Part shown: positions 23,669 through 59,183 of the stretch, piece after piece
Numbering within the stretch: the first letter of the stretch is position 1
How the letters are laid out: the number at the start of each line of letters is the position of its first letter
Source of the DNA: an uncultured archaeon
GTDB lineage: Archaea; Altiarchaeota; Altiarchaeia; IMC4; SCGC-AAA252-I15
DNA length: 64,000 nucleotides
Assembly: GCA_964587725.1 (NCBI GenBank)
Contig: CAZPLO010000001.1
Location: 16,327-80,326 of the forward strand
Direction of reading: 5' to 3'
Position numbers and translations under genes: made by a program
Notes under the pieces: generated by a model
Told to the model about the DNA's origin: nothing
The model's database searches: none
Seen by the model: only the letters and a program-made list of their open reading frames with translations

Positions 23669-23669
23669 G

Positions 23670-25322
23670 TTACACCGAGAATGGGAGACCCTCCTTGCCC
23701 TTGTAGTAGTAGGACTTTATTATCTCCCACACGTCGAAGTAGTTGAATATGCCCTCAGATATCATCTTGTTTATGATTTTTGCCCTGTACTCGAGTTCAT
23801 TGTATATTTCGCGCACGTCCTTGTAGCCGAGCATCCGGGCTATCTTCTCCTCCAGGATGTAACTGTTGTGGTAGCCGAGGAAGCCGAACTCGTCCGACGT
23901 CGGCACCCACTCGAACACGGCCGCGGTTCCGACCTTGCCGAGTTCGTCGTAGTATTTGATAAGCTCTGTGACGCTCAGGACACGGCGGACGAACTTCCCG
24001 TGAAGGTACACGGCCTGCTGGATTAAGACGACGTTGAGGTTGTCTATCGCAGATATGGGGACGTTGATTGGGTGGCCGGTCATACGCTGTATCATCTTGT
24101 GGGGGTCGCCGGCGTGGAAGGTGCTCATAACCGGGTGGCCGGTCTGCATCGCCTGGAACGCTATGTTGCCCTCTTTCTCACGTATCTCACCCACGATGAT
24201 GTAGTTGGGCCTTGACCGGAGGGCCGCCACCAGCAGCGTCATCATGGTCACGTCCGTTTCCTTCCCGGACTCCCTAGTTACGAGGTGCTGCCACGCCGGA
24301 TGCGGCATCGTTACCTCGGGTGTGTTTTCGACGCTGTAGACCTTAGCGTCCGGTTTGATGAATGCGCTGACAGCGTTCAACGTCGTCGTCTTCCCGGAGG
24401 CTGTTTCGCCGCAGATGAATATGCTCATCCCGTTCTCCAGGCACAGCCACATGTATGCGGCCATGTCCGCGGTCATCGTGCGCCAGTTCACCAATTGGGT
24501 GATGCTGATGGGGACCTTGCTGAACTTCCGGATGGTGAAGCTGCTGCCCTCCAAACTTACTTCGCGACCGTAGATGAAGTTGGCCCGGCTGCCATCCGGC
24601 ATGATGGCGTCCACCACCGGCTGCGCCTCGCTAACCGGCCGCTCCACCCGCTCGCTGCTGTTGAAGACGTACTTGTCCAACTGCAGGTCTGTGTTGAATA
24701 TGATGTTTGTGGCAACCATCTCGAAAATCTTGTGGATGGTATACACTCTCGCGACGCCTATGCAGTGTATGTCCTCTATGTAGGGGTCACGGAGCAGCGG
24801 CTCCAGTATGCCGTAGCCGACCCGTTCGCGGATGAGAAAGTACTTGATTTTCTCGTACTCCTGCTGGGTCATCCTGATTCTTCCGCCACCTCCTAACTGC
24901 GACATAATATTTTCTATGGCGCCTTTCTTCCTGCCGGACTCCAGCCTCTTACCCTCCACCTCCACCAAATCACCCATCAGCTTCACCAGTATGTCGCTGA
25001 GGTCCTCGGTGGTCTCGCTGGTGTCCATGGTGTGAGCTATCTTAATCAGCTGGTCGCTGATTTTGTTGAACATCTCCTGCTCATGCGGCATCAGCTGAGG
25101 CTCCACCGCAATGTACTGGGTCTCGTTCTCCCCGGGGCGGCGGAGGATGTGGATGAATATGGGGTCGCCGACGGGGTACATGATGTTGGGGAACTCCTCC
25201 CCCTTCAGACTCCGGTCCAGCTGCACGTAGAAGTCCGGCTTCTCCACGCTCTTGTTCTGCAGGTACTCCCGCAGGTGCGGGTTCCTCGCCTGCGCCTCCT
25301 GGAACTCCTTCTCGTCCGGCAT
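23670..25322 (-). CDS. flaI: Archaeal type IV filament ATPase FlaI/ArlI-like
   Basis: Walker A FICGETASGKTTTLNAV, Walker B (RPNYIIVGEIREKEG), His box (MSTFHAGD); 550 aa with the FlaI-like N-terminal domain. Confidence 0.9.
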   Translation of the reverse strand: MPDEKEFQEAQARNPHLREYLQNKSVEKPDFYVQLDRSLKGEEFPNIMYPVGDPIFIHILRRPGENETQYIAVEPQLMPHEQEMFNKISDQLIKIAHTMDTSETTEDLSDILVKLMGDLVEVEGKRLESGRKKGAIENIMSQLGGGGRIRMTQQEYEKIKYFLIRERVGYGILEPLLRDPYIEDIHCIGVARVYTIHKIFEMVATNIIFNTDLQLDKYVFNSSERVERPVSEAQPVVDAIMPDGSRANFIYGREVSLEGSSFTIRKFSKVPISITQLVNWRTMTADMAAYMWLCLENGMSIFICGETASGKTTTLNAVSAFIKPDAKVYSVENTPEVTMPHPAWQHLVTRESGKETDVTMMTLLVAALRSRPNYIIVGEIREKEGNIAFQAMQTGHPVMSTFHAGDPHKMIQRMTGHPINVPISAIDNLNVVLIQQAVYLHGKFVRRVLSVTELIKYYDELGKVGTAAVFEWVPTSDEFGFLGYHNSYILEEKIARMLGYKDVREIYNELEYRAKIINKMISEGIFNYFDVWEIIKSYYYKGKEGLPFSV

Positions 25323-25323
25323 C

Positions 25324-26052
25324 CTAAGCCAAACCTCCTATGTCTATGATGAGGCCCTGGCCCGGCTCAACACGGAACGCAATCTGGGGAACAACCTGTA
25401 TCTTGCTGCGCTTGAACCGGTTCACCGCCATGTACTTCTTGGTTTCCCCTCCCAGCTCCTTCATCCCGAACTCCAGGTATATGTCCGACACCGACCGGAA
25501 GAGCGTTAACAGGCTCTTGTTCAATTGGTCGGGGTCGACGGTCATCATCACAATCTTCCCCTTGTTGGTGAGTTTCTTGAAGAACTTAATGACCTCGAAT
25601 GCTTTCTCGTCGCTGATGTTGCCCTGCACCAGCAGAAAGGATATGGTATCTATGATTATCACCGTCTTCTCGAATAGTTTCTTGGCGGACAGCAGCCTTT
25701 CAAGAAAGTCTTTCCGCAGTTTTCCTCCGCCTATGAACGGGAACATGGGTATGAACAGGAGGCGCTCGTCTATCACGTATTCGTCGACCACGTACTGGAG
25801 GGAGTCCATCTGCTCCAGGAACTCCTTCGTCGACAGTTCCGCGCTGATGTAGGTGGCGGTTGCGCCGTTAACCAGCGACGAATACAGGAGACGCTGGACC
25901 AGCAGGCTCTTGCCCATCCCGTCCTTCCCCTCTATAAGCATCAGGGAACCGTAGGGAAGGGCGCCGCCTAACTTGGTGTGCAGCATGTCCCTTTTAATCC
26001 GCATGCTCAGGAACTGGTTGTCGGATTCCTGCTCGTCTGGTTCCTCAGCCAT
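25324..26052 (-). CDS. flaH: FlaH/ArlH-like KaiC/RecA-superfamily ATPase
   Basis: Single RecA-like domain of about 240 aa with Walker A LIEGKDGMGKSLLVQ. Located immediately upstream of flaI, as in archaellum operons. Confidence 0.75.
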   Translation of the reverse strand: MAEEPDEQESDNQFLSMRIKRDMLHTKLGGALPYGSLMLIEGKDGMGKSLLVQRLLYSSLVNGATATYISAELSTKEFLEQMDSLQYVVDEYVIDERLLFIPMFPFIGGGKLRKDFLERLLSAKKLFEKTVIIIDTISFLLVQGNISDEKAFEVIKFFKKLTNKGKIVMMTVDPDQLNKSLLTLFRSVSDIYLEFGMKELGGETKKYMAVNRFKRSKIQVVPQIAFRVEPGQGLIIDIGGLA

Positions 26053-26083
26053 CCTGCGTTACAGTATTTGTAAAGGGTATATA

Positions 26084-26419
26084 TTATTCCGATTCAGCGT
26101 TCTCCTGCGCCTCCTGCTGTCCCTGTTCCCTGACACCCGCCTTCTCCAGCAGGTTTTCCGACATGGCTATGATCCTCTCCAGATTGTCTTCGATGCTGGT
26201 GAGCCGCTCCTGATTCTCGTGAGTGAGTTCAAGGGTTTTTGAGACTGTAACGTCGAGTTCGTCGGTTTTGGACTCCAGCGTGTGTATGCGGTCGTTTATC
26301 TGCTCCTTTGCTTCGTTGAACTCCTTGACCTGTTCGGCAATAATTTCCAGTCTGACGGTGGTGACACTCTTCTTCCGCCTGAATAACCCCCCCAACTTGT
26401 TCAGCAATCCGTCCAACAT
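26084..26419 (-). CDS. Small coiled-coil protein (111 aa) in the FlaHIJ-like operon
   Basis: Heptad-rich sequence (EQVKEFNEAKEQINDRIHTLESKTDELDVTVSKTLELTHENQERLTSIEDNLERI); position where FlaC/D/E/G/F-type accessory genes would occur. Confidence 0.45.
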   Translation of the reverse strand: MLDGLLNKLGGLFRRKKSVTTVRLEIIAEQVKEFNEAKEQINDRIHTLESKTDELDVTVSKTLELTHENQERLTSIEDNLERIIAMSENLLEKAGVREQGQQEAQENAESE

Positions 26420-26467
26420 AGACCCGGGACACCCAAGAGTACTTACGTTTAAGCGTATAAAACGGCT

Positions 26468-27193
26468 TCAGCGGGGGCATACCAGCGAGTACCCGCGTTC
26501 CAGCTGGGTCTCGCATTCCGCCACCTTCATAGGGTTCATGAACGACCTGCACAGGCTCTCGTTGTTGAGGTTGAACGCCACGCACATGATGCATTTGTCG
26601 TGTATCGCCATCAAGTCGATGTCCTCGCCGGGAACACGCTTGCATATCTCTGTGTCGTTGAGTTTCATCCCCACCGACCCGTAGCAGTTGTATGTTGCCT
26701 TCTGCGTGGACAGTTTGTCGCATAAGGTGACGTTGGCTGTGCTCAACGCGAGGGAGAGGAAGCAGCGGTCTCGCTCCGCCGGGTCGGTTTTTTTATCGCA
26801 GAGTTTGACTGTCTGGAAGGTGGTGGTGTAATAGACTGCCACCGCCACCACGAGAATCAACAGCGCCACAACCGCCACCACAAACCATTTGGTGAAGTTT
26901 ATCCGCTCCAGGATGTGTATTTTCCCGCGTTTCTCCTCCACCGTGCGATGGTACCCTGGGACGTGGAGGGTCTCCTTCGCCAGCACCTCCTTCGTCCTCT
27001 CCAGGCCGACGTAGTCGATGAAAACGTTTTTGATTATCCTGTTGAGGACCAGCTTCAGCTGCTCGTCCTTCAGCTCGTCCTCCGAGACGCCGGTTTTCTT
27101 GACCGCCTGGTCTACCTTCTGAACTCCATCGGGACCCTCGTAGAGTACGAACGCCTTCTTCCGGAGGTCCTCTATCTTCGGGTTCATATACAT
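26468..27193 (-). CDS. Bitopic membrane protein: N-terminal cytoplasmic domain, single TM, Cys-rich (about 14 Cys) extracellular domain
   Basis: TM helix WFVVAVVALLILVVAVAVYY; the ectodomain has LCDK...C..L...YNCYG...C repeats. First gene of the minus-strand FlaHIJ-like operon. Confidence 0.5.
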   Translation of the reverse strand: MYMNPKIEDLRKKAFVLYEGPDGVQKVDQAVKKTGVSEDELKDEQLKLVLNRIIKNVFIDYVGLERTKEVLAKETLHVPGYHRTVEEKRGKIHILERINFTKWFVVAVVALLILVVAVAVYYTTTFQTVKLCDKKTDPAERDRCFLSLALSTANVTLCDKLSTQKATYNCYGSVGMKLNDTEICKRVPGEDIDLMAIHDKCIMCVAFNLNNESLCRSFMNPMKVAECETQLERGYSLVCPR

Positions 27194-27238: not shown

Positions 27239-27667
27239 ATGAGTGGTCAGGCCTCGGTGGAATGGATTGTGATAATGTCCGTCGCCATACTGGTGCTCGC
27301 CATCATGCTCTCCCTGAACGAAAACAGCTACCAGACGTTCAAGAGCAACGTCCGCGTGGGGAAGGCGAAGGCGGCGTTGAACGACATCAAAAACGCGGTG
27401 GACTTCGTGTACAGCCAGGGAACGGGCGCCAAGACCAGACTCTATGTCACGGTGCCGGAGGCCAGCAACTTCACCATAACCACGCTGCCCGGTGGCGTGG
27501 GACACATACAGTGCATAGTGTATGTGCGCGGTCAGGAGGAGGTGTTCGACGCGTTCACTGACGCTAACATAACAGGGAGCATACCGTCGACATCTGGAGG
27601 ATACTGCATCGACGTGGAATACGCGGAAGCGGCGGTCAGCATAACCAGGAGCAGCGGCTCGTGTTGA
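27239..27667 (+). CDS. Type IV pilin-like protein, class III signal peptide (DUF361/QxSxEY type)
   Basis: Internal ATG of track ORF 26915..27667. MSG|QASVEWIVIMSVAILVLAI is a prepilin-peptidase-type signal peptide; TTTAATAAAAT TATA box about 25 nt upstream. Confidence 0.75.
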   Translation: MSGQASVEWIVIMSVAILVLAIMLSLNENSYQTFKSNVRVGKAKAALNDIKNAVDFVYSQGTGAKTRLYVTVPEASNFTITTLPGGVGHIQCIVYVRGQEEVFDAFTDANITGSIPSTSGGYCIDVEYAEAAVSITRSSGSC

Positions 27668-28592: not shown

Positions 28593-28978
28593 AAAAAGGG
28601 TTCATACTCACCATGGACGCGATGGTGGCCCTCATGGTGGGGGCGGTGCTGGTGACCGGCATACTGTATTTCGTAACCCGCCCCAGCCACGACACCGGCG
28701 AACAAATGTATGCGGCGGCCGCTGACTTCCTGGCCGTGGGAGACAAGGAGGGCAGCATCGTCGACGCGTTGAACGGCCGGCCGGGAGACGTCAGCGAGCT
28801 CATGTATTCGATGCCCCATAACCTGTGCCTCAACCTGACGGTGGTGAACGCATCAGGGCAAGTGTTTTACAGCAACAGCAGCGGCTGCAACGAATCATAC
28901 AGTTACGTGATGGCGAAACGCATCATAGTGAACGGCACCGACTATTACACAGCCAGGGCGAGGGTGTGGTCGAGATGA
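28589..28978 (+). CDS. Type IV pilin-like protein, class III signal peptide
   Basis: MKKG|FILTMDAMVALMVGAVLV resembles the bacterial G|FTLxE type; NxS/T sequons in the C-terminal part. Confidence 0.65.
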   Translation: MKKGFILTMDAMVALMVGAVLVTGILYFVTRPSHDTGEQMYAAAADFLAVGDKEGSIVDALNGRPGDVSELMYSMPHNLCLNLTVVNASGQVFYSNSSGCNESYSYVMAKRIIVNGTDYYTARARVWSR

Positions 28979-30234
28979 GAGGCTACCTGTTCACCGCCTT
29001 GACGGTGTTGATGCTGGCGTCCCTGTTCGTATTCTCCTACTACTTCTACACCACAGACTACGCCTCCACCGCCGCAGACATACGAGCCGAAAAAACAGCC
29101 AACGTATTCGACGACGTCGCCTGTGACGTGGAGGAAATACTGGGGTTGGACGCCGCCGTTAGGGCGGGCTCGGACACCGTATACGGGTTCAACGACCGGT
29201 TCCCCGCCGCAGGAATACCGTCGACCATACGGAACTACACAGACTACGTTGAAGGCGCGTACGCCACTGAAACAGCGGCGGAACTCTCGTTGAACGCTGG
29301 AGCACTGTCTTCTGCCACCGCGTCGGTGGACTTCACACTCCATCCGTTCAAGTACGCGTACGGTTACGGGAACCTCAGCAAGAAGACGGTTTGGTTCAGG
29401 AACCTCACCCTGGAGTACGAGCCCCTGGAATTGAACCTGACGCTCGACTTCCGCGGCGAGAACGCTAAAGACATGATATGGACGGAGGCTGAAGACTACT
29501 CCCTCACAGGCGAAACAGTGGTGGACGACTCCGACGCGTCCGAAGACAGCTACGTAAGGGACTTCGCCTCCATGAACACGTTCATAGATGTGCCCTTGAA
29601 CGTTAACTACACGTTATGGGTCAGAACAGTATACGACAATAGCAGCAAAAACTTCACCGTGGAAATAGACGGACGGAATAGCAGCAGATTCGACTTGAGG
29701 GATGAGGGGGCATCTTCCGCGTCGTTCAAATGGTTCAACGACACCGACGAATTCAACCTCACCGCCGGGGTGAAGACGGTGAAGGTGCATTCACTGGGCG
29801 CCGGGACGGAGTCCATAGACGTCATCATGCTGACGACGGACTACCTCGACCTGGCGGACGCGCACAATACCCGGCCCCGAGACCCCTTCACATTCTACAA
29901 CATAAGCGGTGGAGACATGGAGGTGAATGTGAAGGTGTTGTTCGACAACGCCAACCACACCCACACGTCGGATTTGAGCAGGACTGCGGAGTCGCAGTGG
30001 AACATCACATTCAGGGACGGGGACGGGGTGAACGTGCGTCTCGGAGGAGCGGATGGACACTACAGCAGCTTCACCGCGGCATTGAACGACACAGTGAACT
30101 CCAGCAACGGAAACCTGAACTCTTCGGCGGTGTTCTCGGACACGGGCGACGAACGGTACGTGGACAGCGGCTGCACGCTCAACCAGGCCGGCGGACTCGC
30201 TAGAACAGGAAGGCTGTGGCTCGCAGCCGGCTGA
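28975..30234 (+). CDS. Large pilin-like / pilus-tip candidate protein (419 aa), N-glycosylatable
   Basis: Internal ATG of track ORF 28825..30234 (ATGA overlap with the upstream gene). N-terminus MRG|YLFTALTVLMLASLFVFSYYF; more than 15 NxS/T sequons. Confidence 0.55.
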   Translation: MRGYLFTALTVLMLASLFVFSYYFYTTDYASTAADIRAEKTANVFDDVACDVEEILGLDAAVRAGSDTVYGFNDRFPAAGIPSTIRNYTDYVEGAYATETAAELSLNAGALSSATASVDFTLHPFKYAYGYGNLSKKTVWFRNLTLEYEPLELNLTLDFRGENAKDMIWTEAEDYSLTGETVVDDSDASEDSYVRDFASMNTFIDVPLNVNYTLWVRTVYDNSSKNFTVEIDGRNSSRFDLRDEGASSASFKWFNDTDEFNLTAGVKTVKVHSLGAGTESIDVIMLTTDYLDLADAHNTRPRDPFTFYNISGGDMEVNVKVLFDNANHTHTSDLSRTAESQWNITFRDGDGVNVRLGGADGHYSSFTAALNDTVNSSNGNLNSSAVFSDTGDERYVDSGCTLNQAGGLARTGRLWLAAG

Positions 30235-30268
30235 AGTTTTTATTACTGCACAGTAATGGTTTAGTAGG

Positions 30269-32008
30269 ATGGTCGAGATCAGGACTAAAGCGGACGCGCT
30301 GGTCGACGCGGTGAGGAAGTCCGAGGAGGGGGTGGGACTCGACCGCCTCGCAAAGGAAGCCGGCGTCGACGCAGACACAGCGGAACGCTGGGTCAACCAG
30401 ATGGAGGACATGCTGGACATAGACTACAGCATAAACCTGTTCAAGAAACCCACCGTCCGGATGAAAAAAGCCGAAGTCAAACGCACACCCAACATATTCC
30501 TAGACAGCGAAGGTGAGACCATCGAATCCTACGACATAACCGTCGACAAGGTCCCCGCGCAGATAATCATCCAGGACCGGAAAGGCGACTTCATGCGCAC
30601 CTACTACGTTGGAATGCCTGTTTTGGGAGAGGGAACCCACACCCTACTCAACAACGTGGTTAAGGAACTCGCGGTGAAGGTGTCCACCCGCACCGAAGAC
30701 ATATCAGACCCCCGGAAGGCGTCCGAGATAAAAGGCAAGTTCAGGATGGAGGCGCGGCAGAGGATACTTGACGAGATGCCGGTTACGGAGGAGCAGGCCG
30801 ACATACTCTCCGGGCTGATAATGCACAGGGTGTACGGCCTCGACGACCTGGAGATAATCCTGGGAGACGACCTCATAGAGGAACTGTGCATAAACGCCGG
30901 CGACCTCCCCATCATAGTGTATCACAGGAAGTACGGGTGGCTGAAGACCAACGTCGTCGTGCCGGAGGAGAAGGACATATTCGACTACGCCTCCCTCATC
31001 GGCCGTAAGGTGGGTAAGGACATCACCAACTTGAACCCGCTGATGGACGCCCGCCTCATCACCGGCGACCGCGTCGCGGCGTCGCTGTTCCCCATCTCCT
31101 CACAGGGGAATACGATAACCATACGGAAGTTCGCGCGGGAGCCGTGGACGATAGTGGACTTCATGAGCCCGGAATACAACACCATCTCTTCCGAGATAGC
31201 GGCGTTCCTGTGGCTGTGCATACAATACGAGTTGAGCGTCATGGTCGCCGGCGGCACAGCCTCCGGGAAGACGAGCATGCTCAACAGTTTGTGCGCGTTC
31301 ATACCGCCGGGGCAGAGGGTGGTAAGCATAGAGGACACCCGCGAGATACAACTGCCGTCGCACCTGGGATTGAACTGGATACAGCTGACCACGCGGGAGC
31401 CGAACCCCGACGGCCTCGGAGGCGTCACCATGCTGGATTTGATTGTGTCTTCGCTGAGGATGCGACCGGACCGCGTGATAGTGGGCGAGATACGGAACCG
31501 GGACGAGGCGGAGGTATTGTTCGAGGCCATGCACACCGGCCACTCAGTGTATTCGACGATGCACGCGGACACCGCCATGCACGTCCGCCGGCGGGTGACG
31601 GAGCCGCCGATACAGATTCCGGAGGCCGAATTGGAGGCACTGCAGGTGATACTTACACAGTACCGTGACCGCCTGCACGGGATACGCCGCACATTCGAGA
31701 TAGCGGAGGTCATACCTGGGACGAGGGAGCGGCGGCTGGAGCTGAAGTACCTTTACAGGTGGAGGATCAAGACCGACACCTTCGAACAGGTCGACAGAAG
31801 CAACCGCGTATACAACGACCTCAACCTGTACACCGGCATGAGCGTGAAGGAGATAGAGCAGGACCTGCTGGAAAAAAAGCAGGTGCTGGAGTGGCTGCTG
31901 GAGAACAAAGTCAACCGGATGGACGAGATAGGGCAGGTCATGAACATGTACTACACGGACAAGGACGAACTCATAAACGCGGTCCAAGCCAAGAAGAAGA
32001 TAGAATGA
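30269..32008 (+). CDS. TadA/FlaI/VirB11-family secretion ATPase with N-terminal extra domain
   Basis: Walker A MVAGGTASGKTSMLNSL, Walker B (RPDRVIVGEIRNRDE), His box (VYSTMHAD); 579 aa with an N-terminal HTH-like segment (GLDRLAKEAGVDADTAERWVNQ). Confidence 0.85.
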   Translation: MVEIRTKADALVDAVRKSEEGVGLDRLAKEAGVDADTAERWVNQMEDMLDIDYSINLFKKPTVRMKKAEVKRTPNIFLDSEGETIESYDITVDKVPAQIIIQDRKGDFMRTYYVGMPVLGEGTHTLLNNVVKELAVKVSTRTEDISDPRKASEIKGKFRMEARQRILDEMPVTEEQADILSGLIMHRVYGLDDLEIILGDDLIEELCINAGDLPIIVYHRKYGWLKTNVVVPEEKDIFDYASLIGRKVGKDITNLNPLMDARLITGDRVAASLFPISSQGNTITIRKFAREPWTIVDFMSPEYNTISSEIAAFLWLCIQYELSVMVAGGTASGKTSMLNSLCAFIPPGQRVVSIEDTREIQLPSHLGLNWIQLTTREPNPDGLGGVTMLDLIVSSLRMRPDRVIVGEIRNRDEAEVLFEAMHTGHSVYSTMHADTAMHVRRRVTEPPIQIPEAELEALQVILTQYRDRLHGIRRTFEIAEVIPGTRERRLELKYLYRWRIKTDTFEQVDRSNRVYNDLNLYTGMSVKEIEQDLLEKKQVLEWLLENKVNRMDEIGQVMNMYYTDKDELINAVQAKKKIE

Positions 32009-32892
32009 GGGTCTACGCCATGGTGCTGCCTCAGGCGGCGGGCAGGAAACTCGGCAGCAGGTTCGAGTGGCTGGGGAGGATTCTGACGGACTTCACGCCG
32101 CAGCTGAAAAGCGACATCGTGCTGTCGAACATAGACATGACCGCGGAGGAATACATGGTGTCTTCGCTGGCGTCCGCGTCCATACTGGGGGCTATGATGT
32201 TCACCTTCACCTACCTGCCAGTTTATTTACTGGAGATGGTGCCCGGCAGCGAACTCATCGTTTCCATTGCGCCGGCGGTGGTGATAGCGTTGCTGGACTT
32301 CTTCATAATGATGCAATATCCTCGGATACTCGCCGTTAAACGGGCGGAGCTTATAGACCGAGACCTCATATACGCGCTCAAGGAGCTGCTGCTGAACATG
32401 AGCGCCGGCCTGAGCCTGTTCGAAAGCCTCCGCCGGGTGTCGGACGCCAATTACGGGTACGTGTCATCCGACCTCCGGGGGGTGGTGGAGAAGACCACGC
32501 AGGGGACTCCGTTGGACGACGCCCTTGAAGGCCTCGCCCTCCGGACGTCGAGCGAGTACATGAGGAACGCGCTGTGGCAGACGGTGAACGCGGTGAAGGC
32601 TGGCACCAGCGTCAAAGAAGCATTGTCGGGCATAATAGACGCGCTGGTGCGGGAGCAGACGCGGAAGATACGCAATTACATACAGGAATTGAACGTCCTC
32701 ACCATGGTGTATATGCTGTTCGCAGTCGCCGTCCCCACCATAATAACGACTGTACTGGTGGTATTGACTTCGCTGATGGGGACGGGGGTGGACGAGATAA
32801 CCTACGTAACCGTCATAGTGGTGTGCATATTCATACAGGTGGCGTTGGTGGGTTTCATAAGGAGCAGGCGGCCGCTGGTCTACAGCATCTAG
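32005..32892 (+). CDS. Single-domain T2SSF-family platform protein (TadB/TadC-like)
   Basis: Internal ATG of track ORF 31759..32892, overlapping the ATPase stop (ATGA). One cytoplasmic T2SSF-like domain flanked by TM helices. Confidence 0.7.
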   Translation: MRVYAMVLPQAAGRKLGSRFEWLGRILTDFTPQLKSDIVLSNIDMTAEEYMVSSLASASILGAMMFTFTYLPVYLLEMVPGSELIVSIAPAVVIALLDFFIMMQYPRILAVKRAELIDRDLIYALKELLLNMSAGLSLFESLRRVSDANYGYVSSDLRGVVEKTTQGTPLDDALEGLALRTSSEYMRNALWQTVNAVKAGTSVKEALSGIIDALVREQTRKIRNYIQELNVLTMVYMLFAVAVPTIITTVLVVLTSLMGTGVDEITYVTVIVVCIFIQVALVGFIRSRRPLVYSI

Positions 32893-33209
32893 GCCTCCGG
32901 CTTCCCCATCAGGTTGGGGCTGCGGGGTTTCTTGTAGCCTCTGTCGTGGACGCGGTAGGATTCCTCGTTCAAGCCCAGTATGCTCACCAGCTCCGAACGC
33001 GCCACCAGAAACCTGCTGTGCCCGAGGAACGTGGACAGGTAGTCGGTGGTCAGACCGTTCAGCAGGCTCTCTTTTTCGACATCGCTCATGTGCTCGACGT
33101 CCATTATGCCTAGTTTCTTCATCTCGTTAACCAGGACCAATCCCCCGGACTTGCCGGACCACTTGAACATGAACTCCAGCAGCTGTCTGCCCACCTTGGC
33201 CATCTTCAC
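32889..33209 (-). CDS. Small hypothetical protein (106 aa) coupled to the KaiC-like ATPase
   Basis: Its start overlaps the KaiC-like stop by 4 nt; no recognisable family. Confidence 0.4.
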   Translation of the reverse strand: MKMAKVGRQLLEFMFKWSGKSGGLVLVNEMKKLGIMDVEHMSDVEKESLLNGLTTDYLSTFLGHSRFLVARSELVSILGLNEESYRVHDRGYKKPRSPNLMGKPEA

Positions 33210-33913
33210 TTATACAGTACCTTCAATCCCTCCGACGATATGTCGTAGTCTACGAAGTTTTTGACGTGATTTGAGCCGCGCATCTTATGGACCTTCACCT
33301 GCCGCCCCCACTCCTCCCTGATTCGGAACAACGTGACGGAGTCGGCTAGGAAGTCCTCCATGCCGAAACGGCTGGTGTCGTTCGACGAATACGGTATCTC
33401 GGTGGTGAACACGGTGGTGATGCCCATCTTCTTCAGCGACACCATGAAACGGAACAGCTCCGCCCTGAATACTTTCTCGTCCTCGTACGCGATAGCCAGC
33501 GGCACCACGCTGTCCAACCCCAGGCGGACTGCATCGCTGTAGTTCAACTGTATGAACTCCAGCAGGTTCTCGAAGCGGAGCGGACTCTCCGGGCTCTCCA
33601 CCTCGTCGGCGGTGTTCAACGCGTTGACACGTAGCGAGGACAGGTCGAACATGGTGAGCATGTCATCGTCCACGTCCTCCAGGTCGAGGCCGACCGTTTT
33701 GCTGTCCCTTACTATGTGGTCCCTCATCTCCTCCAAGGTAATGTAAACTCCCTTCTGCCCGTACTTCACCGCCCCGTTGTAGAGAAAGTAGAGGGTGAAC
33801 AGGGTCTTCCCGGAGCCGCTGCACCCGCACAGCAGGTTTATGCTGTGGGGTATAAAGCCGCCCCCCAAAAGGTTGTCGTAGCCTTCAATGCCGGTCTTGA
33901 TTCGCTCATCCAT
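33206..33913 (-). CDS. KaiC-like / FlaH-like single-domain RecA-superfamily ATPase
   Basis: GIEGYDNLLGGGFIPHSINLLCGCSGSGKTLFTLYFLYNG (Walker A) with the KaiC/RadA-like layout; 235 aa. Confidence 0.8.
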   Translation of the reverse strand: MDERIKTGIEGYDNLLGGGFIPHSINLLCGCSGSGKTLFTLYFLYNGAVKYGQKGVYITLEEMRDHIVRDSKTVGLDLEDVDDDMLTMFDLSSLRVNALNTADEVESPESPLRFENLLEFIQLNYSDAVRLGLDSVVPLAIAYEDEKVFRAELFRFMVSLKKMGITTVFTTEIPYSSNDTSRFGMEDFLADSVTLFRIREEWGRQVKVHKMRGSNHVKNFVDYDISSEGLKVLYK

Positions 33914-33983
33914 AATAAAACCCCCCTTAGAACGTTAGATATTGAATGTTTTATTAAAATAACCGGGATTTAATACATTACCT

Positions 33984-34964
33984 ATGGAACGGACCTACAT
34001 CCTCGCCTCCCGGATTTTCCCATCCAGGGTTAATAGAAGCATCAGCGACCTCCTCAGGTACTGCGGAAGCACCATGACGGCCGAGACCTGGCTGGGGAGG
34101 GCCGCCATAATCAGCATCATAATATTCGTTTTAACGGCGGCGGTGTTTTTGTTCACCGTCCAAAACCCCCTGATGGCCCTGTTCCTGGTATTGGTGGGGC
34201 TCCTGATATTCCACGTGGCAAACTACATGCTCCTGTATTTGAAGGCGGAGAGCAGGGCTAGGGCTGTGGAACGCGTTCTCCCCAATCTCCTGCAGCTGAT
34301 AGCCGCCAACCTCAACTCCGGGATGACGCCTTTCCAGGCTGTGAAGGAGGCGTCTAGGATAGAGTTCGGAATCCTGAAGGAGGAGATAGACACCGCCATC
34401 GCATTGTCGCTGGGGACCATGCCTTTCCCGGACGCGCTGATGTACATGACGACGAAGGTGAAATCCGAAACCTTCAGGAACGTGATGGAGTTGTTCGTGG
34501 AGGGGATGAGGACGGGGGGGCCCCTGGCCACCCTGCTGAACGACATAGCAGACGACATAATAGAGAACCTGGACCTGCGGCGGGAGATTGTCACGCGGAG
34601 CAAAAGCTACATACTGTTCATATCCTTCATCGTGGTGGTGGGGGCTCCGCTGCTGTCGGCGGTGTCGATACACTTCATCCGCACCATCACCAGCATAACA
34701 AGCACCGTCGCCTTGGACGTGCCGGAGGTGGCTAACGTGGGCGGCATAACATTCGGGCAGCTGAGCCTCACCGAAAGCTTCCTCACCACCGTGTCGGTGG
34801 CCAACATACTGGTGACCGCGTTGATTGCGAGCTGGCTGATTGCCATAATAGCGGAGGGCAGGGACAAGTACATGTTCAAGTACGCCATAATGCTGGTGCC
34901 GTTCTCCATGGTCATGTTCTACTCCCTCGACTACCTGATAGCGCTGGTATTGACCGTAGAATGA
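33984..34964 (+). CDS. Single-domain T2SSF-family platform protein (TadC-like)
   Basis: N-terminal TM helices, then one T2SSF-type cytoplasmic domain (...NLNSGMTPFQAVKEA...), then C-terminal TM helices; 326 aa. Confidence 0.7.
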   Translation: MERTYILASRIFPSRVNRSISDLLRYCGSTMTAETWLGRAAIISIIIFVLTAAVFLFTVQNPLMALFLVLVGLLIFHVANYMLLYLKAESRARAVERVLPNLLQLIAANLNSGMTPFQAVKEASRIEFGILKEEIDTAIALSLGTMPFPDALMYMTTKVKSETFRNVMELFVEGMRTGGPLATLLNDIADDIIENLDLRREIVTRSKSYILFISFIVVVGAPLLSAVSIHFIRTITSITSTVALDVPEVANVGGITFGQLSLTESFLTTVSVANILVTALIASWLIAIIAEGRDKYMFKYAIMLVPFSMVMFYSLDYLIALVLTVE

Positions 34965-36064
34965 AAATAGCGTTGATCTGCGAGTTCTTCCCGGAGTCCA
35001 GCGGCCGGGAGATGCGAGGGGGCGTCGAAGCCCGGACGTACTTCATGGGCAGGGGCCTGGCGAAACGACACGACGTCACCGTATACAGCGTCAAAGAACC
35101 GGGGTTTACGAACACTTCCATTGACGGCATGGACGTGGTGCGGGTGGGGCCGGAGATGAAGTACACGCAGGCGTCGTCGCTGCCAGACAGAATCCGTTTC
35201 ATGCGAGACGCCGCCGAGCAGGTGAAAGGCTTTGACGTGGTGGACGGAGCCAGCGTCATAGGCTACCCGGCCGCGTGGTGGAGCAAATGCCCCGTGAAGA
35301 CTGTGACATACCATGACGTGTGGGTCGGACGCTGGATTCGAAACATCGGGTGGAAGGGCGCGTTCGGCGAACTCATGGAACGATACGTGCTGTCGCGCCG
35401 GTGGAATCTGGTGACGGCGGTGAGCGAGTACACGAAACAGAATCTCGTGAAACACGGCGTAGACGCTGAAAAGATTACGGTGGCGCCGAACGGCATAGAC
35501 GTCCGCGAATACGCGGGGGTGAAGGCGGAGAAATTCGACAAACCCACCGTGTGCACGGTAGCGAGGCTGGTGAAGTACAAGCGGGTCGGCGACCTCATTC
35601 AAGCGGCTGCGAATATGAAGGAGGACGTACCCGGCCTTCAGGTGAAGGTTGTGGGGACGGGGCCGGAGAGGAAAACCCTGGAGCGTCTCGCACGTGACCT
35701 CGGAGTAGATGCGGATTTCATGGGGTACGTGCCAAAACACTCCAGGGTGTTGGAGACAGTGAAGGCGTCGCACGCGTTCTGCTTGCCCAGCGCGGTGGAA
35801 GGCTACGGCATCACCGTCGTGGAGGCGATGGCGTTGGATGTCCCGTACGTGGCGTCCGACATACCCGCCGTCAGGGAGGCGACGCGGAACGGTTCAGGGG
35901 GCCTGCTGTATGAGACAGGCAACATAGGGAAGCTTGCAGACGGACTGAAGACTGTGCTGCAGGGAGGCGTTGAAGGCGGCGTGGACTTCATCGGCGAATA
36001 CGAGTGGAGCCGTACGGTGGAGAAGGTGGAGGAGGCGTATGAAAGGGCATCTGACATTAAGTGA
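34961..36064 (+). CDS. GT4-family (GT-B) glycosyltransferase
   Basis: N-terminus MKIALICEFFPESSGREMRGG. The C-terminal EX7E motif is ...PSAVEGYGITVVEAMA.... Confidence 0.85.
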   Translation: MKIALICEFFPESSGREMRGGVEARTYFMGRGLAKRHDVTVYSVKEPGFTNTSIDGMDVVRVGPEMKYTQASSLPDRIRFMRDAAEQVKGFDVVDGASVIGYPAAWWSKCPVKTVTYHDVWVGRWIRNIGWKGAFGELMERYVLSRRWNLVTAVSEYTKQNLVKHGVDAEKITVAPNGIDVREYAGVKAEKFDKPTVCTVARLVKYKRVGDLIQAAANMKEDVPGLQVKVVGTGPERKTLERLARDLGVDADFMGYVPKHSRVLETVKASHAFCLPSAVEGYGITVVEAMALDVPYVASDIPAVREATRNGSGGLLYETGNIGKLADGLKTVLQGGVEGGVDFIGEYEWSRTVEKVEEAYERASDIK

Positions 36065-37592
36065 CCGGCACGGGCTGGCAGTCATACTGCTGGTTGCTCT
36101 GGCGCTGATGCTCCAGCACATAGGCGGCGCCTTCGGGGGATACCACGGATTCAACGAAGCATTCTACACCCGGCTGGCCGGGAGCATAGCAGAAAACCCC
36201 CTGTCGTATCCGCGGCTGCCCGAAGGCAGAGCAGACTACAACATACCCCCGCTCCTCGCCTACCTCCTCGGATACGCGTTCATACTGTTCGGGGAAGGGG
36301 AGGCGGTTGCGAGGATGGTTCCCGTAGCATTCAGCCTCCTCGCGGTCGCATCAACATACCTCATCGGCAGGAGACTGTATGGGGGGCGGACGGGGCTGGC
36401 GGCGGCCGCCATACTTTCCGTGACGCCCATGCACTTCATCGTAGGCAGGAACGTGCAGACGGACATGGTGTTCGTGGCATTGGGGTTGACCGCAGTATAC
36501 CTGTATCTCCGAGGGTCGGTGAAGGCCGCCGGCGCAGTATTGGGGCTGGGATTCCTCGCCAAACAGCCGGCGGCACTGTATTACGTGGGGTTGCTGGCGT
36601 ACGAGGTTTGGCGGACGCACGACTCGGAAGACCGCCGTGGAACCTTGAAAAAGTTCGCAGTGTTCACTGCGTGCGCCGCTGCAGTGGCAGCACCGTATAT
36701 AATATACAATCTCGTCAACGACCCCGGAGGGTTCCTGGGCGGGCAGACACGCGACGTCATGCTCGCCTCGACCGGCGGCCCGGGATTGTTCGCGCTAGCC
36801 TCCGAAGCATACAATGGATTGTCTCCGCTGACTACATTGGCATTCATCGCAGGCGTCATACTCGTGCTGCGTAAACGTGAACGCGACCTCACACTCATCT
36901 ACACGGCATTGTTTGCGGTGTTCTTCCTGTTCTACAACTTCCACTCATACTATGCGCTGCCGCTGGCGGCGTTCGCTGCATTGGCGGCGGCACGGGCATG
37001 CTCAGGGATACCGTCTAAGAAACTCCGCCTAGCAGCCATCTTACTACTCTACTGCGCTGGACTCTTCAACACCGCGCTGATGATGTGCGCCAACAAATAC
37101 GGGTACGAAGAGTTCAGGAGGCTGCCCCGGCACATCCCCGAACAGGATGCTGTGCTTGTTGCTTCAGACGTCATAGAACGCAGTTACCTGCCGGTGCTCC
37201 AATACTATGCGGACAAGGAGGTGGTTGCAGCCGGCGGATACGACGTCGAAGCAGGTGAAATGTATCCGCTGGACTACTCGAAACCCACGTATGCGCTGAT
37301 ACACCGGAGCGAAGTGGACCTGGGGCGGCTGACCGAACAGCACCGGCAGAGACTAGTTGACAACGGCGTCTACGCGGACGTGCACGCGCTAGCCCTGGGC
37401 GGCGTGGTATTCCACCGGCCGCCCATAAACCCCCACTTCTTCACCAACGGCCCACTACAGGTGGAGTGGCTGCTTCCCCCAACATCATACGGGGTCGTGA
37501 AGGTGGGTGAGGTGCCGGAGGTGTTCGCCGTGAAACTGCGGCCCAGCGAACGCCTGTACAGAAGCGACAGAGGAGGCTACAGCATCAGATAG
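36039..37592 (+). CDS. GT-C membrane glycosyltransferase, GT39/GT83 (PMT/ArnT)-like
   Basis: Internal ATG of track ORF 35970..37592. Polytopic membrane protein with ...VAVASTYLIGRRLYGGRTGLAAAAILSVTPMHFIVGRNVQTDMVFVALGL..., typical of the PMT/ArnT family. Confidence 0.65.
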   Translation: MKGHLTLSDRHGLAVILLVALALMLQHIGGAFGGYHGFNEAFYTRLAGSIAENPLSYPRLPEGRADYNIPPLLAYLLGYAFILFGEGEAVARMVPVAFSLLAVASTYLIGRRLYGGRTGLAAAAILSVTPMHFIVGRNVQTDMVFVALGLTAVYLYLRGSVKAAGAVLGLGFLAKQPAALYYVGLLAYEVWRTHDSEDRRGTLKKFAVFTACAAAVAAPYIIYNLVNDPGGFLGGQTRDVMLASTGGPGLFALASEAYNGLSPLTTLAFIAGVILVLRKRERDLTLIYTALFAVFFLFYNFHSYYALPLAAFAALAAARACSGIPSKKLRLAAILLLYCAGLFNTALMMCANKYGYEEFRRLPRHIPEQDAVLVASDVIERSYLPVLQYYADKEVVAAGGYDVEAGEMYPLDYSKPTYALIHRSEVDLGRLTEQHRQRLVDNGVYADVHALALGGVVFHRPPINPHFFTNGPLQVEWLLPPTSYGVVKVGEVPEVFAVKLRPSERLYRSDRGGYSIR

Positions 37593-37638: not shown

Positions 37639-38337
37639 ATGGTTGAGCGCGTTCAAACGGGTATACCGGGGCTCGACGAGCTCCTCGGCGGCGGATTCAT
37701 CAGGAGACGGCATGTTGTCATATGCGGCGGCCCGGGAACCGGAAAGACCACGCTGGCATACGAGTTCCTGTACCGGGGGGCCGAACAATACGGTGAGAAA
37801 GGGTTGTTCGTGTCATTGGAGCAGAGCCCCGAACGGGTGGTGGATGGGGCGAAGGCGTTGTTCAGCAGCTGGGACTGGGACAGACACCTGGACTCTAACA
37901 TAGTGGTGACGAGGGTGCAGATAGACGACTTCACCCACCTCCAGGACATCATAGGAAACTACGTCAAGGAACACGGTGTGAAGCGGGTGGCGTTGGACAG
38001 CCTAACCCTGCTGCGGCTGTATTTCAGGGGCGAAGACGCGTACCGGAACAATCTGTATGAGCTGCTCACGTTCCTCGGAGACCTCGACTGCACCACCCTG
38101 CTGACGCTGGAGAAGGCGATGAACCGACGGTCCGACGCCCAATACGACATGGAGGAGTTCGTAGCAGACGGCGTAATCAACATGTATCTGGTTCCGAAGG
38201 AGCGGGACCGTCTGAGGGTATTGGAGATTGTGAAGATGAGGGACACCGACCACAGCACCCGCCTTAGCCCGTTCAAGATAACACCGGACGGACTGATGAT
38301 TTCCCCTGACGCGCAGATGTTCGGAGACATCGAGTGA
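37639..38337 (+). CDS. KaiC-like single-domain RecA-superfamily ATPase
   Basis: GIPGLDELLGGGFIRRRHVVICGGPGTGKTTLAYEFLYRG; 232 aa; related to 33206..33913. Confidence 0.8.
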   Translation: MVERVQTGIPGLDELLGGGFIRRRHVVICGGPGTGKTTLAYEFLYRGAEQYGEKGLFVSLEQSPERVVDGAKALFSSWDWDRHLDSNIVVTRVQIDDFTHLQDIIGNYVKEHGVKRVALDSLTLLRLYFRGEDAYRNNLYELLTFLGDLDCTTLLTLEKAMNRRSDAQYDMEEFVADGVINMYLVPKERDRLRVLEIVKMRDTDHSTRLSPFKITPDGLMISPDAQMFGDIE

Positions 38338-39221
38338 AGATGGACAAGGCATCCCGGGTGTACTCCAGCCTGCTCGCCGGCGAAACAGCATACCTTGCTA
38401 AGGTGAACCCGCAGCTGGCTGCGAAGACGCTGGAGGAGAAGGCGGAGGCGCTGAAGAAGGCCGGCGTACAGTATACTGTAGAAGGCGGTCTGAAGATAAC
38501 CGAGGCACCCGAAAACTCCGGGGAGCTGCTGTATCAGACCATACTCGACTTGGCAGCACCCTATGAGAAACAGTACGGGGTGAACAAGCTCTGGAACCCG
38601 CTGAAGACCGTGATAGTGAAGGTGTTCCAGAAGAACCGGGACGTGGTCCGGGAGACGGGCATGGAGGTTCCCGTCGCAAAGTACGAGATAGAGTACATGA
38701 TACTGGAGACGCTGTTCGGCTTCCAGGGCACCGACTTCCGGAAGAAGAGGTGGATAAACGGGGCCGTGCTCGTGACAAACCACGAAATCGTGCTGCCGGA
38801 GGACGGCGGCGCAGAACACATTCCCTTGCAGGCCGTCGCCACCGTCGGCCGCGAAATATACGTGGGCTACGAGCACGAGATGACCAAGGGGATAGTACGG
38901 GCCATAGACTACCAGGTGAAGGAGTCCGGGATGTCCTGTGCGGTGCTGCTGGCGAAGGGGGAGTTGATGAAGGAGTTCATGAAGGTCGCGTCCGTCATGA
39001 GGGCGGAGTATCGGAGGCTGAACCCCACGGAGGAGAGGATACTGCTCGCATTATACGATGAGACGCCGGTTGAACAGCTGGCGGGAAAGACAGGTGTGAA
39101 GGGGGTCGACGTGACGGCCGCCTTCAAGCGGCTGATGGAGCTCCGGTACACGGACGGGAAAGGCCACCTCACGTCGTATGGCATTAACGCTTCAATGGAG
39201 TTGAAACAGAGAGGTAGATGA
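38334..39221 (+). CDS. Hypothetical protein (295 aa) with C-terminal winged-helix-like region, translationally coupled to the KaiC-like ATPase
   Basis: ATGA overlap with the upstream gene. The C-terminal ...TEERILLALYDETPVEQLAGKTGVKGVDVTAAFKRLMELRY... looks like a wHTH. The N-terminal 230 aa are not recognised. Confidence 0.45.
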   Translation: MKMDKASRVYSSLLAGETAYLAKVNPQLAAKTLEEKAEALKKAGVQYTVEGGLKITEAPENSGELLYQTILDLAAPYEKQYGVNKLWNPLKTVIVKVFQKNRDVVRETGMEVPVAKYEIEYMILETLFGFQGTDFRKKRWINGAVLVTNHEIVLPEDGGAEHIPLQAVATVGREIYVGYEHEMTKGIVRAIDYQVKESGMSCAVLLAKGELMKEFMKVASVMRAEYRRLNPTEERILLALYDETPVEQLAGKTGVKGVDVTAAFKRLMELRYTDGKGHLTSYGINASMELKQRGR

Positions 39222-46886: not shown

Positions 46887-47834
46887 ATGCTCATGGACCG
46901 CAGAGCACAAGCGAGTATAGAGTTCATGGTGGTGGTGGGCGTAGTGCTGATGGTGTTCATCATACTCGGGTACGTCGTCTACAGGAATTTCGTGAAAAGC
47001 AATGACCTGAAGATACACATAGACGGCACCCGGGTGGCCAACCACGTGGCCGACAGCATCAACACAGTCAACGTCCTCGGCGACGGCTACAGCACCACCT
47101 CCATGGTCCCTGGCACACTCTACGGAGGCCGCCCGTACACCGTCAACTTCTACGAGAACGAGTCCGCAGTGTATTTGATGGGGAGCGGGTTCTCAACAGG
47201 CAGCGAACTCACCTTCAGCAGCCCGTTGTATACGAGCCAGATAGAATGCCTGCTCCCCGGTTGCGCCTCGGGATGCAACCAGACCGGCGGGGAACAGTGC
47301 CTGCAGGTCAACGACTCCATGACTGTGAAGCTGACGGGGTGGGGTGGAAGTGTGTACTTGAGCCCGAAGTTCAACGTGGAACAGCAGAGCTTGAGGGGGG
47401 ATGTAGTGTCTTATACCTCATACCAGGACCCCGACCCCTTCGCGGCCGAAGGCTTCGTATTGGGCGAGGAAGTGAACTGGAACGTGATGTATGTACATGA
47501 GAACGTCGACGACGGCTCGTTGAGCCTGGTGTTCAGCCTTAACCTGTCGGGGGAGGGGTTTAGGGCCGACGTCGAGGAGGTCTTGGGGGAGCGGGTGGAG
47601 TTCGGGTCGAACGATGACTTGGACGAATTCAACATGGACGTCGTGCCAGGAGCCGACGAGGGCCGGTGGAGTTCCGGCGGAGGGGACGTCGACGGAGGCT
47701 ACGTGAAATACGCCGGCGGATTCAGGGTGTGCGTGCAGCCGGAGACCATGCCGTCCGTGGAGTGGAGGTTCCTCAGCTCCGACGGAAACCACCTGACATT
47801 ATACGATGAGAGAGTATGCGTAACGTATCCGTGA
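46887..47834 (+). CDS. Pilin-like protein, class III signal peptide (315 aa)
   Basis: MLMDRRA|QASIEFMVVVGVVLMVFIILGYV (QASIEF motif); the start abuts the previous stop (TGAATG). Confidence 0.6.
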   Translation: MLMDRRAQASIEFMVVVGVVLMVFIILGYVVYRNFVKSNDLKIHIDGTRVANHVADSINTVNVLGDGYSTTSMVPGTLYGGRPYTVNFYENESAVYLMGSGFSTGSELTFSSPLYTSQIECLLPGCASGCNQTGGEQCLQVNDSMTVKLTGWGGSVYLSPKFNVEQQSLRGDVVSYTSYQDPDPFAAEGFVLGEEVNWNVMYVHENVDDGSLSLVFSLNLSGEGFRADVEEVLGERVEFGSNDDLDEFNMDVVPGADEGRWSSGGGDVDGGYVKYAGGFRVCVQPETMPSVEWRFLSSDGNHLTLYDERVCVTYP

Positions 47835-47836
47835 CG

Positions 47837-50086: not shown

Positions 50087-50087
50087 C

Positions 50088-52196: not shown

Positions 52197-52229
52197 CGGG
52201 TTTTTAGACCCTAGTCTGTATTATAGTAC

Positions 52230-53702: not shown

Positions 53703-53750
53703 TTTAAATGAATTATAAAATAGTTTGAAGATAAGTTCAAATAATTTAAA

Positions 53751-57402: not shown

Positions 57403-57451
57403 TCCCTTTTAATTGGAAATCAATATTATTAACTAGTCGGTTAATAAAAGA

Positions 57452-59176: not shown

Positions 59177-59183
59177 GTTTAAG

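Follow-up and report, generated by a model that had tools for sequence, protein, structure and literature searches.

The window analysed here, a 64,000-nucleotide stretch of contig CAZPLO010000001.1 from an uncultured archaeon of the Altiarchaeota (assembly GCA_964587725.1), contains a pilus locus whose genes at positions 30269-34964, encoding an assembly ATPase, two platform proteins and an embedded KaiC-family ATPase (KaiC1) with a small helical partner, are the motor half of a longer pilus operon. As a whole the locus is probably a conventional archaeal type IV pilus operon of the two-platform class, to which a clade-specific KaiC regulator module has been added. The structural half consists of five prepilin-like genes, pil1-pil5 (Table 1), which end 34 bp upstream of the ATPase gene; with these included, an apparent oddity, a pilus motor without pilins, becomes a standard type IV pilus operon that is complete in its structural and motor genes. 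The product of the locus is most likely an adhesion-type pilus, and pili of DPANN archaea and Altiarchaeota are thought to mediate attachment.

A preliminary description of the segment 30269-34964 had recognised the five genes lying there, and hidden Markov model (HMM) searches with Pfam and NCBIfam bear out its domain assignments (a T2SSE ATPase, two T2SSF proteins, a KaiC-like protein and a 106-aa protein). Its statement that the locus has no pilin gene is literally true inside these limits, but the conclusion that it drew, a pilin-less secretion or signal-transduction device made from a FlaI-type ATPase, TadB/TadC-type proteins and KaiC, is not supported because it was argued from the absence of pilins. 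The lack of a pilin gene within the segment and the KaiC-like ATPase embedded in it favour such a device, which is nonetheless very improbable given that five prepilin genes stand immediately upstream in the same coupled gene string, and that in distant DPANN lineages the ATPase and platform genes are found, in synteny, with these same pilin families. The description had itself allowed that a pilin gene immediately next to the segment, within one operon, would point to a conventional pilus, and pil1-pil5 are such genes.

The conventional pilus machine, the two-platform class and the occurrence of KaiC genes near archaeal pilus loci are already known; what is particular to this lineage is the module of a KaiC and a helical partner placed between the platform genes, the family of the partner being undescribed. 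The host is archaeal, as indicated by exosome, proteasome and TFIIE genes in the window and by the best ATPase matches, which are to Altiarchaeota.

Prepilin genes and the putative filament

The pil1-pil5 genes are separated by a 2-nt gap or overlap by ATGA, and the ATPase and platform 1 genes likewise overlap by ATGA, so that the translational coupling reported earlier for this last pair is confirmed; all of these junctions were read directly in the sequence. The spacer between pil5 and the ATPase gene carries a T-run followed by a 6-bp inverted repeat, TTACTG-CA-CAGTAA (30243-30256), which is identical in another assembly with an identical ATPase protein (L086) and could, from its sequence, be an attenuator, a terminator or a regulator site.

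Each of the five predicted products begins with a few polar residues, which lead into a cleavage-type motif, G↓X (the arrow marks the predicted cleavage site), and one strongly hydrophobic N-terminal helix, and the class III signal combination of [KRSG]G↓ motif and hydrophobic helix is conserved family by family among DPANN homologues. The corresponding motifs in homologues, which distant loci yielded for all five families, are [KR][GA]↓Q[AS]x[IV]E for pil1, [KR][GA]↓Q.(S/T).(E/D) for pil2, [KR]G↓Q.(F/I)S.(L/T)D for pil3, which is found 5' of the ATPase gene in ~25 loci, [KRST]G↓F(V/I)(I/V)(T/S)(L/M)D for pil4 and [KR]G↓(Y/I/L)(L/I/V)F(T/S) for pil5. A structure model of pil1 combines a long N-terminal helix with a beta-sandwich domain, which is the classic pilin architecture, and pil1 is most likely the major subunit. 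The much larger pil5, which is annotated as a 419-aa gene in another assembly and weakly matches CBM_35 (E=0.029), is a candidate tip adhesin. Sequon density in pil1-pil5 is 1.4-3.9 per 100 aa, compared with 0-0.9 in the cytoplasmic proteins of the locus.

Source annotations name homologues of pil1 'PilE' or 'UPF0333'. The NCBI protein record for pil1 itself (P0179) has 132 aa rather than 142 aa and covers 93% of the open reading frame (ORF); its start appears to lie ~10 codons later, downstream of the class III signal motif, which would thereby be lost from the database entry and may be one reason why the pil genes look anonymous. Because an archaellum motor cluster is adjacent (see below), pil1 and pil2 were also considered as archaellins of the neighbouring arlHIJ genes. 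This assignment was rejected on account of their size and of the Q-x-S/T-x-E motif typical of pilin/UPF0333 proteins, and also because linkage to the pilus ATPase is kept in genomes that have no arlHIJ neighbour.

From these features a plausible assembly pathway can be outlined. The pil1-pil5 products would be made with class III signal peptides and cleaved by a prepilin peptidase encoded elsewhere in the genome. They would probably be N-glycosylated, with the GT4 and PMT_2 enzymes encoded next to platform gene 2 as candidates, the latter being proposed for this role because the pilins are rich in sequons. A hexameric PilB/FlaI-type ATPase is predicted to dock on a heteromeric platform of two single-T2SSF proteins, equivalent to the N- and C-terminal halves of a fused FlaJ, and to polymerise pil1, perhaps together with pil2, into a surface filament in which pil3-pil5 would serve as minor or tip subunits.

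Alternatively, the machine could build a short pseudopilus for uptake, bindosome-like surface display or DNA transfer instead of a long adhesive pilus. Pilus and pseudopilus are inseparable by sequence, the ATPase weakly matches the bindosome BasE model (137 bits; cut-off, 1000), genes for large proteins with class III signals and lectin-like domains lie nearby (46887-62300), and binding proteins bearing class III signal peptides have been proposed to functionalise archaeal type IV filament (TFF) machines (bioRxiv 10.64898/2026.04.22.720090). We nevertheless regard this as quite improbable, as the pil1 model shows complete pilin architecture, the five-family pilin set is kept in genomes whose annotation generally includes type IV pili (PMC8561730), and no substrate-binding-protein or DNA-processing genes are seen in the operon.

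Table 1. Genes and other features of the pilus locus and of a downstream cluster in the window
Feature	Position	Strand	Remarks
pil1, prepilin-like, 142 aa, candidate major pilin	27239..27667	+	N-terminus MSG↓QASVEW, then hydrophobic helix
pil2, prepilin-like, 136 aa	27670..28080	+	MNGG↓QVTVEY; one N-terminal transmembrane segment; 3 sequons
pil3, minor prepilin-like, 171 aa	28077..28592	+	NRG↓LVLTLD; ATGA overlap with pil2
pil4, minor prepilin-like, 129 aa	28589..28978	+	KKG↓FILTMD; ATGA overlap with pil3; 5 sequons
pil5, large prepilin-like, 419 aa, candidate tip/adhesin subunit	28975..30234	+	MRG↓YLFTAL; 16 N-x-S/T sequons
PilB/FlaI-family assembly ATPase, 579 aa, extra N-terminal domain (~residues 1-83)	30269..32008	+	Pfam T2SSE E=2e-31
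Platform protein 1, 295 aa, one T2SSF domain	32005..32892	+	Pfam T2SSF E=5.7e-17
Small helical KaiC partner, 104-106 aa	32889..33209	-	no Pfam/NCBIfam family
KaiC1, single-domain KaiC-family ATPase, 235 aa	33206..33913	-	PF06745 E=5.8e-49
AT-rich divergent intergenic region, 70 bp	33914..33983	.	putative bidirectional promoter of KaiC1 and platform gene 2
Platform protein 2, 326 aa, one T2SSF domain	33984..34964	+	Pfam T2SSF E=1.5e-15
GT4-family glycosyltransferase	34961..36064	+	Pfam Glycos_transf_1 2e-32 and Glyco_transf_4; ATGA-coupled to platform gene 2
PMT_2-type membrane glycosyltransferase	36039..37592 (start uncertain: 36039 or 36108)	+	Pfam PMT_2 5.8e-20
Protein with class-III-signal-like N-terminus	46887-47834	+	RRA↓QASIEF
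Protein with class-III-signal-like N-terminus	47816-50086	+	KKG↓QIFTWD
Protein with class-III-signal-like N-terminus, 1048 aa	59154-62300	+	SRG↓YVVTWD; Laminin_G_3 lectin domain

The assembly ATPase and the split platform

The ATPase passes the PF00437 gathering score, with PilB3_C sub-threshold, and its closest relatives of solved structure are afGspE2 (2OAP; 7.6e-69, residues 84-566), FlaI (4II7) and CpaF (8RKD; 6e-41). It scores 158 bits against the NCBIfam TadA-family model (cut-off 373), is also below the cut-off of the FlaI model and is 28% identical to the ArlI protein encoded in the window. More than 6000 homologues were found, the best being in Altiarchaeota and DPANN archaea: the closest (57-74% identity) come from metagenome-assembled genomes of Candidatus Altiarchaeales and Altiarchaeota, and the next tier (43-53%) from Micr-, Aenigm-, Woese-, Nano- and Iainarchaeota. 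Residues ~1-83 are covered by no solved homologue. A helix-turn-helix (HTH)-like fold had been suggested for this N-terminus, which is plausible but weak; its own HTH matches are sub-threshold (E 0.018-0.026), and at the corresponding place some homologues exceed the cut-off of the winged-helix-like family PF25212. Archaeal TFF ATPases are known to vary in their N-terminal domains (bioRxiv 10.64898/2026.04.22.720090).

Both platform proteins exceed the PF00482 gathering score and have multiple predicted transmembrane segments. Platform 1 aligns to positions 3-248 of 555 in an ArlJ profile, which is the N-terminal half, and platform 2 to the C-terminal half of an ArlJ profile that is 465 positions long (192-461), such that two separate single-T2SSF genes correspond to the two halves of fused platforms. 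To see how this organisation is distributed, the window proteins were mapped by tblastn onto 82 non-redundant related loci (numbered with the prefix L) from DPANN archaea and Altiarchaeota. In 73 of the 82, the genes for the ATPase and both platform proteins adjoin one another on one strand, at a median spacing of 48 nt (an automatic count gave 72, to which L009 was added, where the genes overlap), and the split platform is taken to be ancestral because of this contiguity. Each platform gene matches its own orthologue best across the contiguous loci. Homologues of pil1-pil5 stand upstream of the ATPase gene in the same order in L001 and L009, and many other loci have partial sets, for example L011, L017, L036 and L081.

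The orderly mapping of platform 1 and platform 2 onto the two halves of ArlJ would also be expected if they were parts of a recently frameshifted or otherwise disrupted FlaJ-type gene in a pseudogenised conventional system, as the preliminary description had allowed. This is hardly credible: the platform genes are separate in 76 of the 82 related loci, with the split kept across phyla, the two proteins are only 24% identical, and their ORFs lie 1.09 kb apart with two conserved intact genes in the gap. The N- and C-half profile mapping together with the conserved split and the low identity instead agrees with the ancient gene fission that Denise et al. proposed for the platforms common to Epd and Tad systems (PMC6668835).

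By gene content and profile coordinates rather than by phylogeny, the locus falls into the two-platform Epd/Tad-like class, which is widespread in DPANN archaea and Altiarchaeota. An established member is the Epd (EppA-dependent) pilus of Methanococcus maripaludis (system 1, or Makarova clade 1), which like the window locus has one PilB-type ATPase and two single-T2SSF platform paralogues; there EpdL works with EpdJ and EpdK, both of which are needed for piliation, and the pilins are cleaved at KG↓Q, with Gln at +1 as their hallmark (PMC4371748). Several prepilins of the locus families share this Gln in the context [KR][GA]↓Q. Both systems also have a secondary ATPase of the KaiC superfamily, which in Epd loci is FlaH-like (arCOG04148) and takes the place that TadZ has in Tad (PMC6668835). 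The locus differs from Epd in its order (pilins, ATPase, platform N-half, platform C-half), in its pilins, with pil1 having a globular beta domain where the major Epd pilin is short (PMC6668835), in lacking a dedicated EppA-like peptidase within the locus, and in its accessory ATPase, which is of KaiC type instead of FlaH type, is encoded on the opposite strand and comes with a helical partner of its own.

The preliminary description had called split T2SSF proteins the bacterial Tad arrangement, and the locus does resemble bacterial Tad/Flp systems (TadA/CpaF, TadB, TadC, TadZ) in its platform split in two, single ATPase and accessory P-loop ATPase. Two platform genes are, however, also typical of archaeal Epd-like (system 1) loci and of many clade 2 and DPANN loci (PMC6668835, PMC4858521, PMC4371748, bioRxiv 10.64898/2026.04.22.720090). 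Two-platform archaeal pili are found among clade 1 and clade 2 loci (PMC4858521), system 1 occurs in methanogens and some DPANN archaea, and DPANN 4A-like loci have two platforms (bioRxiv 10.64898/2026.04.22.720090); bacterial Tad is itself thought to descend from an Epd-like archaeal system (PMC6668835). Unlike bacterial Tad, no member of the secretin (RcpA), TadZ, Flp pilin, TadV or TadD-G families was found among the scanned ORFs, which included the whole operon and its flanks, and the signal peptides and pilins are of archaeal type. The locus is also like the type IV pilus loci of DPANN archaea, previously described generically as FlaI, TadB and TadC with 'dark matter' pilins (PMC6393860 Fig. 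2A, PMC8561730), which have an ATPase at 43-53% identity, both platform genes and homologues of pil1-pil5. A design with five pilins, one ATPase and two platforms is thus common to Altiarchaeota and many DPANN lineages. Unlike the window, the DPANN loci lack the embedded KaiC1 pair, and many have instead a KaiC2-like gene upstream of the pilins.

KaiC1 and its helical partner

The presence of two oppositely oriented genes between the T2SSF genes, as reported earlier, was verified from their coordinates, strands and junctions. The KaiC1 stop codon overlaps the GTG start of the 106-aa ORF (GTGA), with an ATG 6 nt further on, and the convergent stops of this ORF and of platform gene 1 overlap by 4 nt (CTAG). 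On the other side, the spacer shared with platform gene 2 has a TATA-like element, TTTTATTAAAATA, ~20-35 bp upstream of the platform 2 ATG, and the orthologous spacers are likewise short and AT-rich with TATA-like elements; for these reasons the spacer is a putative shared bidirectional promoter for KaiC1 and platform gene 2.

KaiC1 scores 167 bits against PF06745 (cut-off 26.6), and its best PDB matches are to the KaiC CI domain (about 1e-48 to 1e-51). The Walker A sequence GCSGSGKT, TLEE (containing an EE pair), LDS (Walker B) and KMRGSxH are conserved in seven orthologues. It fails the ArlH and FlaH models (31.2 bits versus 215, and 39.7 versus 194), whereas the true ArlH of the window (25324-26052) scores 225.8. 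It is also not of the circadian type, as it is a single-domain protein with a circ_KaiC score of 124 (cut-off 546), no KaiB-like gene is adjacent, and the protein paired with it is an unrelated, helical one. KaiC1 is 30% identical to the product of a second KaiC gene at 37639-38337. This gene, KaiC2 (PF06745 1e-56), is translationally coupled to one for a 295-aa protein with weak CheF-arch and winged-HTH matches (together 37639-39221, + strand), and L001, L005 and L085 keep this pair downstream of their pilus loci.

The 106-aa partner is modelled as a three-helix bundle with a disordered, invariant tail, PRSPNLxGKP (AlphaFold2 (AF2) model confidence, pLDDT, 81), and gave no informative fold match and no Pfam or NCBIfam family. 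It has 30 close homologues, all at ≥55% identity. An exhaustive profile search with the partner returned only 28 relatives, including distant single-domain proteins and multi-copy proteins of ~340 aa (P0159-P0164; L089 405-1475) that contain two to three tandem copies of the domain, match no Pfam family and adjoin a CBS-domain gene in two contexts, both on short contigs. The partner follows a KaiC1-type gene in all seven close-relative contexts and in the sole distant member with readable neighbours, the single-domain P0165, which lies 3 nt downstream of such a gene; because this distant member also follows a KaiC1-type gene, the two form a conserved two-gene module.

Within one Altiarchaeota subclade the module occupies the same position in 7/7 contexts (the window, L001, L004, L005, L006, L084 and L085), which span ATPase identities of 57-100% and partner identities of 55-100%, with variable genes outside the core that extends from the ATPase to GT4. 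The relation of the KaiC pair to homologous loci, which the preliminary description had left to a synteny search, is therefore upheld among these close relatives. GT4 follows platform 2 in L001, L004, L005 and L085, and in L001 and L085 is itself succeeded by PMT_2. The embedded pair is absent from all of the more distant loci, including other Altiarchaeota with an ATPase at 47-50% identity, where a ParA/MinD-like gene lies directly 5' of the ATPase gene instead. In L002 (2315-3257) and L017 (4594-5539) this ParA/MinD-like ATPase is accompanied by a 65-aa protein (PF27359), 5' of a 784-aa assembly ATPase, an arrangement that recalls TadZ of bacterial Tad loci. ParA/MinD-like genes were considered as a general alternative to KaiC1, an idea that was rejected because they occur in few loci.

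Other KaiC-like genes are found near related pilus loci. They are present upstream of the pilin cluster in 13 of the 38 DPANN loci with a full upstream flank, and, of the 76 loci scored for gene order, 7 have one directly beside a pil1 homologue; the KaiC genes in the vicinity of DPANN pilus loci are more similar to KaiC2 than to KaiC1. One DPANN locus (L003 11881-13817) has, after its two platform genes, a 404-aa fusion of KaiC with a Ras/Arf-like small GTPase, a 110-aa protein and a Roadblock/LC7 protein, and another KaiC gene heads its pilin operon. The earlier view of KaiC-associated modules as poorly characterised is correct in that they are experimentally uncharacterised, although the association of KaiC with pilus loci has already been described (PMC4858521, PMC6668835).

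The role of the KaiC1 pair is most likely regulatory, either post-translational or transcriptional, as argued from three precedents. The first is the archaellum motor ArlH-ArlI-ArlJ, in which, as in the locus, a KaiC-like ATPase accompanies a FlaI-type ATPase and a T2SSF platform, and in which ArlH binds ArlI and modulates it (reviewed in PMC8978795); ArlJ is fused, unlike the locus platform, and KaiC1 shares only the Walker A region with the window ArlH. The second is cirA of Haloferax volcanii, a KaiC-like gene that, as is the case for KaiC1, lies within a filament cluster but on the opposite strand, and which represses arl genes (PMC10983859). The third is the set of KaiC families associated with archaeal type IV pili, including pairs of a KaiC with a helical partner that were predicted in such loci by Makarova et al. 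(PMC4858521). Among these, the arCOG01174 and alpha-helical arCOG03758 pair of subclade 4B resembles KaiC1 and its partner in combining a single-domain KaiC in a pilus locus with a small alpha-helical second component; the partner here appears to belong to a different, uncurated family, and the site of the KaiC1 pair between two platform genes is seen only in the one Altiarchaeota subclade. The KaiC1 module, with its three-helix partner inserted on the opposite strand, could then switch the ATPase or platform in a manner that depends on ATP or phosphorylation, much as ArlI is controlled by ArlH, or alternatively act on pilus gene expression, as CirA does on arl genes.

[quoted passage not shown] If this were so, the partner domain, including its tandem-repeat ~340-aa forms, would represent a new family of KaiC output or adaptor domains. 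KaiC-like proteins have been proposed as general archaeal signalling hubs, and the KaiC1 pair, locked between two platform genes, offers a clean natural case, narrow but testable, for studying how such proteins may control type IV filament machines.

The pair could also be a passenger, that is, a general signalling module that landed once in the locus and has been inherited vertically with no link to the pilus. In favour of this, 73 of the 82 related loci have adjoining platform genes and do not contain the pair, its two genes are on the opposite strand, archaea have many KaiC paralogues (the window alone contains three KaiC-family genes), and KaiC1-type genes with partners are also found on short contigs with no visible pilus gene. 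We consider this unlikely, however, because the pair holds its position in every one of the subclade contexts across the range of divergence given above while the outer flanks change, it is tightly packed against both platform genes by the convergent overlap and the ~70-bp shared spacer, and KaiC genes recur beside the same pilus family in DPANN archaea, an association that is documented (PMC4858521).

Several observations weigh against the reading of the locus as a conventional pilus operon with an added KaiC regulator. None of pil1-pil5 passes a Pfam or NCBIfam threshold, and the match of pil2 to PF04021 (Class_IIIsignal) is weak (E=0.043); pil1 of the window has Ser rather than Lys or Arg at -2 of the predicted cleavage site; and no prepilin peptidase (PibD, FlaK or EppA) was found among the ~50 window ORFs scanned with Pfam. 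Genes for class III signal (prepilin) peptidases are often unlinked to pilus loci. Most related loci function without an embedded KaiC1 pair, the KaiC counts near pilus loci are raw numbers with no genome-wide background, and what ties KaiC1 and its partner to the pilus machinery is indirect. The genes 5' of the ATPase in L004 are not prepilins (among them are a 610-aa membrane protein and a Sec-signal protein; L004 1-4115), which implies that the ATPase-platform-KaiC-GT4 module is separable from the pilin set.

Neighbouring genes in the window

Divergent from the pilin operon is an archaellum motor cluster (21920-27193, - strand) that includes arlH, arlJ (582 aa) and arlI, which exceeds the equivalog cut-off with 716 bits. 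The arlHIJ copy occupies 21920-26052, and the cluster also encodes a 111-aa coiled-coil protein and a 241-aa protein with a single transmembrane segment; none of the scanned window ORFs was recognisable as an archaellin, ArlF or ArlG. The arrangement of archaellum motor and pilin operon is repeated in L001. A third ATPase of the T2SSE family (493 aa) is encoded at 4578-6059 (- strand; T2SSE 1.3e-35) and scores 278 bits with the FlaI model and 193 bits with the TadA-family model, both below cut-off, and no T2SSF gene was found among its scanned neighbours.

A probable large surface protein of 1705 aa, with right-handed beta-helix/NosD, Big_13 and CarboxypepD_reg domains, is encoded near the motility and pilus genes at 13160-18277 (- strand). 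At 46887-62300 (+ strand; Table 1) there is a second cluster, whose large proteins have N-termini resembling class III signals and are interleaved with DUF2079, GT2 and PTPS-related membrane proteins; the pilus machine may have additional substrates or adhesins in these large proteins.

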